NCBI GenBank assembly: GCA_050124795.1
Contig: JASFEO010000002.1
Span: 26,797-90,796 of the forward strand
Length of the DNA: 64,000 nucleotides
Reading direction: 5' to 3'
Source: Candidatus Pacearchaeota archaeon
GTDB taxonomy: Archaea > Nanobdellota > Nanobdellia > Pacearchaeales > GW2011-AR1
Part shown: positions 10,625-11,892 of the stretch, one piece after another
Numbering within the stretch: the stretch's first letter is position 1
Layout of the letters: every line of letters begins with the position of its first letter
The notes under the pieces: generated by a model
The model's input: the letters and a program-made list of their open reading frames with translations, nothing else
What the model was told of the DNA's origin: nothing
Databases searched by the model: none
Position numbers and translations under genes: made by a program

Positions 10625-11892
<1,268 letters not shown>

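Follow-up and report, generated by a model that had tools for sequence, protein, structure and literature searches.

DGRs of DPANN archaea and CPR bacteria were reportedly described by Paul et al. in 2017. These elements were also treated by Wu et al. 2017 (PMC5758913), and the RT-associated motifs of Weinberg et al. 2017 (PMC5737381) include RT-16, the role of which was left open there. For the RT itself, the closest structural reference is bRT from the Bordetella phage, in which the N-terminal extension positions the template:primer duplex and contacts Avd, the distal part of that duplex and, via the conserved Lys29, a template phosphate, and in which the fingertips loop begins at F66 (bioRxiv 10.1101/2023.10.23.563531). 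SSR contingency loci, to which a part of our observations will be compared, are known in Neisseria, Haemophilus and Campylobacter (PMC11868660). Here, we analysed a window of DNA, that is, one whole stretch of 64,000 nucleotides from a Candidatus Pacearchaeota archaeon, in which the RT reading frame of a DGR seemed to be broken at a homopolymer.

The sequence at positions 11000-11020 of the window is GCA GGA AGT TTT TAA TTT GT. The first-pass annotation had regarded a frame-2 ORF (10625-11014), closed by the TAA at 11012-11014 behind a run of five T (11008-11012), as the N-terminal part of the RT, with the remainder following in frame 1. It had offered a pseudogene with the DGR currently off, a sequencing indel or ribosomal slippage as explanations. 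The coordinates of the T5 run, the stop codon and the ORF are correct. Frame 1 is indeed open from 10996 to a TAG at 11890-11892 and codes for an RT (Pfam RVT_1, E 9e-26) that has no start codon, the first ATG, GTG or TTG occurring only at 11293. One inserted T does produce a single continuous ORF of 422 codons with the joined stretch ...ERAGSFLICKFILR... across the junction. Nevertheless, the two frames are very probably not the halves of one gene: we read the site as the end of a 129-aa gene that happens to lie beside a 5'-truncated RT relic bearing a nonsense codon. The T5 run and the TAA (11008-11014, forward strand) would then be the ordinary 3' end, (AG)T TTT TAA, of an independent and conserved gene, and no frameshift, sequencing error or ribosomal slip would be involved.

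The 129-aa ORF is a complete, stand-alone gene on the forward strand (10625-11014), recorded as hypothetical protein PVJ67_01155 of a Candidatus Pacearchaeota archaeon. A search with this ORF alone returned four proteins, namely the identical protein (P0121), which is present in NCBI, JGI and Logan, and three homologues of 129-131 aa with 58-61% identity; none of the Pfam or NCBIfam families matched it. Its C-terminus is ...AFERAGSF*, encoded by GCA GGA AGT TTT TAA (A G S F *), and its homologues stop at the same place, with ...FERAGSF*, ...FERAGSI* and ...FERTGSF*. Since the homologues share this C-terminus without being followed by an RT, the stop codon at 11012-11014 is the natural end of an independent gene. 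The assignment of the frame-2 ORF as an RT N-terminus did not survive the profile and translated searches described below, in which it showed no similarity to RT N-termini. The reported match of the fused junction to a conserved RT region held only in its second half, where FILRDPKTR corresponds to FLVYEPKPR of bRT; the preceding AGSFLICK does not correspond to YERGPYRE.

These results bear directly on the notion that a continuous RT gene was inactivated by the deletion of one base from a T6 run. The open frame of 422 codons gained with an added T is what recommends it, but the upstream 129 aa constitute an independent conserved gene with a conserved stop codon and bear no resemblance to RT N-termini, and the RT homology stops four codons short of the T run, on its downstream side. 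All that a sixth T would achieve is to join an unrelated 129-aa protein to an RT without its N-terminal subdomain. As the two ORFs never formed a single gene, a T6-to-T5 frameshift pseudogene can be set aside, and we regard such a deletion as extremely improbable. We are just as disinclined to accept a miscalled homopolymer, with a true T6 misread during sequencing or assembly. The presence of a homopolymer is all that points to it, and T runs are commonplace in the window, which contains 469 runs of at least five T at 31% GC. The NCBI MAG contig and the independent Logan assembly of SRR11696579 agree in the T5 run, and the junction is also the same in the latter (contig L008 equals window positions 625-11051 with 100% identity). 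Moreover, the same gene ends with the same ...AGT TTT TAA in L005, a related locus devoid of an RT. An indel at this position would even be immaterial, because T6 would not restore the RT.

Programmed -1 frameshifting is known from dnaX, from IS elements and from Sulfolobus fucA1. At the T5 run, it would require a -1 slip of tRNA-Phe on U UUU UAA to create a fusion of the 129-aa protein and the RT; alternatively, termination and reinitiation at ATT (11014-11016) would yield a working truncated RT. Slippage of the P-site tRNA from UUU to UUU beside a stop codon is physically possible, and in TAATT the stop codon overlaps with a near-cognate start in frame 1. However, the zero frame AGT TTT TAA contains no slippery heptamer of the X XXY YYZ type, as the A-site codon is a stop, and the sequence at 11005-11095 does not form a downstream stimulatory structure (MFE -7.4 kcal/mol, z = 0.37 against shuffled sequences). 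The T run itself is variable at the gene end of the relatives, being TTTTT in L005, ATT in L006 and TTC in L007, and in L005 it occurs without any RT. The overlap of two ORFs is not kept either, as L005, L006 and L007 have the gene end without an ORF downstream, and homologues in which both parts form one protein are absent. Furthermore, the product of either route would lack the N-terminal subdomain with its conserved Lys and would end at the TAG. We consider recoding or reinitiation at this site highly improbable. Among the three explanations initially put forward, the pseudogene with the DGR switched off comes closest: the RT is not makeable as it stands, but the cause is not an interruption at the T run.

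If the stop codon is simply a gene end, the RT sequence behind it must be accounted for in another way, and the related loci provide the relevant comparison. The 129-aa gene ends with AGT TTT TAA in L005, AGT TTC TAA in L007 and AGT ATT TAG in L006, and in all three a convergent gene follows directly, with no RT in between. This convergent neighbour is an M50 peptidase gene in L005; the short end of it that can be read in L006 and L007 is similar to the tail of the Tyw1 gene of the window. In the window, a Tyw1-like radical SAM gene (11933-12913, reverse strand; Pfam Radical_SAM and Wyosine_form) is convergent with the 129-aa gene, and its last three codons (RER) and its stop codon are supplied by the 3' end of the RT relic. 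The corresponding ends in the relatives, ELRI* or ELKISAI*, lie directly against the 129-aa gene. In silico deletion of the 930 nt at 11015-11944 leaves a sequence that runs colinear with the empty sites in L007 and L006. As its removal recreates the empty site of the relatives, the RT piece represents an insert between convergent neighbours. We propose that about 930 bp of foreign-looking DNA (11015-11944) became wedged between two genes that are convergent neighbours in the relatives.

At the left junction, seven bases of filler (TTTGTAA, 11015-11021, forward strand) lie between the stop codon of the 129-aa gene and the first RT-homologous base and match neither side; the codons of this region, LICK, do not fit the conserved P-L-x-T of the RT homologues. 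The apparent continuation in frame 1 would be the frame of the truncated RT, which by chance stays open for nine codons further upstream (10996-11022). On the other side of the 129-aa gene, we observed two small ORFs of 82 and 110 aa without any Pfam family (10043-10616), located between a 116-aa gene and the 129-aa gene. In L005-L007, the 116-aa gene directly adjoins the 129-aa gene, and the two ORFs constitute another lineage-specific insertion within this small region.

The relic itself (11022-11946, forward strand; Pfam RVT_1) extends from about codon 65 of a DGR-type RT, at FILRDPK, to a TAA at 11944-11946. A search with the fused protein retrieved 6324 RTs, all from DPANN archaea (Pacearchaeota, Woesearchaeota and Nanoarchaeota). 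The homologues of 333-350 aa are 64-72% identical to the relic and cover about 68-75% of the fused query, and no relative closer than 72% identity was found among 5.8 billion clusters. They align only from FILRDPKTRKISKSDFRDR (FILRDPK) onwards. At the DNA level, too, the similarity to other RT loci starts at 11022, where the F of FILRDPK is encoded (roughly codon 65 in a normal RT). L001 shares 78% identity with the window over 11022-11377, and colinearity with L071 begins at 11022. The relic retains the PLGNLTSQ and YVDD motifs, which conform to the DGR-clade patterns [LIV]GxxxSQ and YxDD, and among the NCBIfam models only those for group II intron, Drt and retron RTs gave matches, all sub-threshold. 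These observations suggest that a DGR RT gene lost its first 64 or so codons, and the start codon with them, while its 3' end would have stayed complete.

In addition to the truncation, the relic carries an in-frame TAG (11890-11892) where the homologues have a conserved TGG (Trp); the natural stop codon, TAA at 11944-11946, follows 17 codons later. The frame past this TAG, SDSYKLKGKLFRAINVL*, fits the W(A/S)(N/D)SY.L... tails of the homologues. We also considered read-through or recoding of the TAG and rejected it: TAG is a stop codon in use here, terminating 8 of the 44 long ORFs, and the window contains no suppressor tRNA.

Comparison with orthologous RTs, which the first-pass annotation had proposed as a check, revealed that the RT homologues have an N-terminus of their own, unrelated to the 129-aa protein. 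This conserved N-terminus, MKTxKNLY..AWKKARKGKTKK..FE.NL...L..EL...Y.PKPL, has no counterpart in the ORF of the window; a longer consensus reads MKTxKNLYxKIxSxKNLILAWKKARKGKTKKxYVIEFEKNL..L..EL..QTYxPKPLxT. We searched the window by tblastn with 106 RT N-termini, and none of the best 30 matches, all of them weak, fell in the 129-aa ORF; the best one had an E-value of 0.003 at an unrelated site. Likewise, an HMM built from 98 RT N-termini found nothing better than E 0.96 in all six frames of the 64 kb, away from the 129-aa ORF. A missing N-terminus located elsewhere in the window, as expected for a split gene or a rearrangement, was rejected with these unconvincing tblastn and HMM matches. The weak pairing of KNCIVYQGKKREIKDRTYFIV with KNLILAWKKARKGKTKKDYVIEF proposed by MAFFT was taken as chance after the same two tests.

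The structure of bRT helps to judge what the truncation means. A full-length member of the family, P0007, aligns with bRT over residues 2-324 (PDB 8ub7, E 2.2e-48). As the relic starts at the equivalent of F66, the whole N-terminal subdomain is missing, including the lysine of the ARKGK motif. It is likely that the relic is unable to work as a DGR RT, be it left untranslated, read from the internal TTG at 11293 or joined to the upstream protein. Wherever the contig extends far enough, the 80 related genome loci have the RT N-terminus, with L066 and L082 as the exceptions. In L066 (6001-6573), about 135 N-terminal residues are missing inside the contig, and in L082 (1694-2242) about 43 residues are missing, again inside the contig; both RTs look like further truncated copies. 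In a third locus, L030 (4629-4718), the RT frame changes near residue 25. RT relics are not unique to the window, because other DPANN genomes also hold defective RTs, as these three loci illustrate.

The other components of the retroelement are intact. The DGR target gene (16466-17119, forward strand) encodes a protein of 217 aa with no Pfam family and has its variable region (VR, 17020-17104) at its 3' end. It is followed on the same strand by an RT-16 RNA (17218-17436; Rfam RF03019, 84.4 bits against a gathering score of 50) and by the template repeat (TR, 17434-17518, forward strand). The VR/TR alignment spans 85 nt with 15 mismatches, all 15 at TR adenines (15 of the 25 adenines), and the window holds no further VR for this TR. 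RT-16 lies between VR and TR, abutting the TR, and is 219 nt long, compared with mostly 140-173 nt in relatives. All 12 of 12 related loci have RT-16, TR and RT side by side in this order, with a distance of 84-125 nt (about 110 nt) from the end of RT-16 to the start of the RT. This shared order defines target/VR, RT-16, TR and RT as the canonical cassette of the DPANN RT family and places RT-16 as the upstream non-coding part of DPANN DGR cassettes.

In the window, by comparison, the TR is followed by an FKBP gene (17592-18257) and by no RT. The relic is found 5.3 kb upstream of VR, RT-16 and TR, behind genes for Tyw1, an M50 peptidase and aIF5A, and no other RT occurs in the window or in the 8 kb preceding it. 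In L001, the aIF5A gene directly adjoins the FKBP gene, and the entire DGR is situated elsewhere, after ftsZ. With the TR adjoining the FKBP gene and the relic lying apart, the DGR of the window is split and, on present evidence, enzyme-less. We thus envisage a retroelement whose target gene with VR, RT-16 and TR would have stayed intact 5.3 kb away from the relic, without an RT next to them. VR, RT-16 and TR are the probable partners of the relic, and the DGR presumably can no longer diversify its target, unless another RT copy resides outside the window. As for accessory genes of the Avd or HRDC type, the small ORFs beside the relic and the target gene contain no Pfam family, a statement made at the Pfam level, and the related cassettes show no obvious accessory gene. 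Some called RTs of the family (P0012, P0016, P0028 and P0049, as well as L001 at 7926-8054) bear Asn-rich N-terminal extensions (LNRNDNLNSRNDNL...). These extensions are the adenine-rich TR read in frame, a gene-calling artefact that marks the position of the TR.

An intact RT could still serve the TR and VR in trans, either from a second copy in the same genome or from a co-existing strain, in which case the DGR would not be off. Logan contigs end at 11051 and 11466, and a JGI contig of 62,878 bp ends at 11021-11023 with a partial RT gene call of 289 aa. The Logan and JGI contigs overlap by 29-31 nt, and the left edge of the overlap is the start of the RT homology. The breaks at 11021-11051 hint that the RT body may also occur in the sample with another left-hand context, possibly an intact one, as if two left contexts converged at the homology boundary in two assemblies. 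The relic is also undecayed at conserved positions: within its 290 retained codons, none of the 88 columns conserved at at least 95% has changed, and 6 of the 139 columns conserved at at least 85% have changed, compared with a median of 5 in homologues. Judged from these counts, the truncation may be recent, the sequence may still be under selection, or an intact copy may exist. That the mismatches between VR and TR are all at adenines is likewise in keeping with an intact copy. The VR in the Logan contig L009 is 100% identical to that of the window, probably reflecting the same reads. On the other hand, there is no second RT in the region from -8 kb to +64 kb of the window, no protein exceeding 72% identity to the relic appears in the cluster search, and the contigs go from the TR straight into the FKBP gene. 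On balance, we consider an intact copy unlikely, though it deserves far more weight than any frameshift or miscall at the T run.

How the relic arrived next to the 129-aa gene may be envisaged in two ways, a tandem duplication followed by two deletions or two independent cassettes, each of which we mention as a possibility. The nearest relatives of the relic are L071 and L001, and the nearest relative of the TR is L022. Whichever route was taken, an annotation trap is corrected by our analysis: an RT seemingly repairable by one base turned out to be a gene boundary followed by a 5'-truncated relic. The DGR of the window is accordingly to be scored as degenerate or split, and not as frameshifted, miscalled or recoded. 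Degenerate DGRs are already known as a kind, to which the window adds one in a Pacearchaeota MAG. Decay of a DGR in a reduced DPANN genome is cleanly illustrated here: VR, RT-16 and TR are intact, and the enzyme is decapitated and displaced.

Interruption of the DPANN RT family is often found at a place other than the T5 run, namely at the linker that joins ..TIWLI.. to KGMPLGNLTSQ and immediately precedes the conserved GMPLGNLTSQ motif. In the relic, this linker contains an in-frame (TC)13 microsatellite (11413-11438, forward strand; SLSLSL...), the sole long dinucleotide repeat in the 64 kb. L071 has the same linker insert as (TC)8, which is out of frame. As a separate observation, direct repeats of 49-81 nt (71-85% identity) occur in a row of minus-strand genes, in 51627-51915 versus 52856-53159 and in 50438-50486 versus 51345-51393. 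They are spaced about 0.9-1.24 kb from each other and resemble small genes duplicated in tandem.

Across the family, the linker repeats are (GA)5-16 followed by ACGCG or G8-12 followed by CGAA, in addition to the (TC)n of the window and L071, and about a third of the 76 loci have such a repeat. The reading frame is lost across the linker in 13 of the 76 loci, all 13 of which have a repeat, compared with 11 of the 63 in-frame loci (Fisher p = 1.6e-8). Both halves of the RT are otherwise fully open in 12 of the 13 out-of-frame loci, and a high-scoring RT-16 is kept in each of the three out-of-frame loci covered by the scan. (RE)n or GGG(G) occurs in the linker of 39 of the 110 called proteins. 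We compared tract lengths within clusters of at least 90% identity (P0088 and P0039). In the P0088 cluster, the in-frame alleles have G8 and encode 339 aa (L091-94 and L096), and half-length, out-of-frame alleles of 183-190 aa are found on about 48 contigs. The out-of-frame tracts read from DNA are G8CG (L095) and G11CG (L077), and further out-of-frame lengths of about G10CG and G13CG can be deduced from the protein ends. The P0039 cluster contains (RE)3 and (RE)4 in frame together with two out-of-frame alleles.

The coexistence of in-frame and out-of-frame alleles in near-identical populations suggests phase variation, as far as can be judged from assembled sequences. We lean slightly towards the idea that DPANN archaea may switch the DGR RT, and with it targeted hypermutation, on and off by slipped-strand changes of the repeats at the linker, and not at the T5 run. 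Sequencing or assembly error at the repeats is a possible alternative source of the different tract lengths. Transcriptional slippage across the repeat may be another way by which out-of-frame alleles are rescued. The RNA of the linker repeats is no better structured than shuffled sequence. In the literature we searched, no description of repeat-mediated switching of DGR RTs was found. If linker repeats do toggle the RT, a hypermutation engine of DPANN archaea would be under stochastic on/off control, and surveys requiring an intact RT ORF would under-count active DGRs.

Compared with the described systems, the family to which the relic belongs aligns with bRT (PDB 8ub7) over its whole length and shares PLGNLTSQ and YVDD with it, whereas the copy in the window has no equivalent of the N-terminal extension (residues 1-65) and bears a premature TAG. 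Like the BPP-1 DGR, the window has a TR/VR pair with adenine-only mismatches. Unlike in the BPP-1 DGR, its RT is not beside the TR and no Avd-like gene is seen; moreover, RT-16 is located upstream of the TR, whereas the Sp RNA of BPP-1 is downstream. The resemblance to programmed -1 frameshifting consists in overlapping 0 and -1 ORFs that meet at a U-rich site, but one-protein homologues, heptamer, structure and conservation are all wanting in the window. The likeness to SSR contingency loci concerns the RT linker and not the T5 run: an intragenic poly-G or dinucleotide tract occurs in several lengths in near-identical populations, and the in-frame and out-of-frame alleles are otherwise intact. 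These RT linkers differ from the contingency loci in that the host is archaeal and the gene is a mutagenic RT rather than one for a surface structure. With the DGRs of DPANN archaea and CPR bacteria, the window shares the host lineage (Pacearchaeota). Whereas those of L001, L002 and L010-L089 form a compact cassette of target/VR, non-coding RNA, TR and RT, the cassette in the window is split, with a truncated RT and with housekeeping genes between the RT and VR/RT-16/TR.
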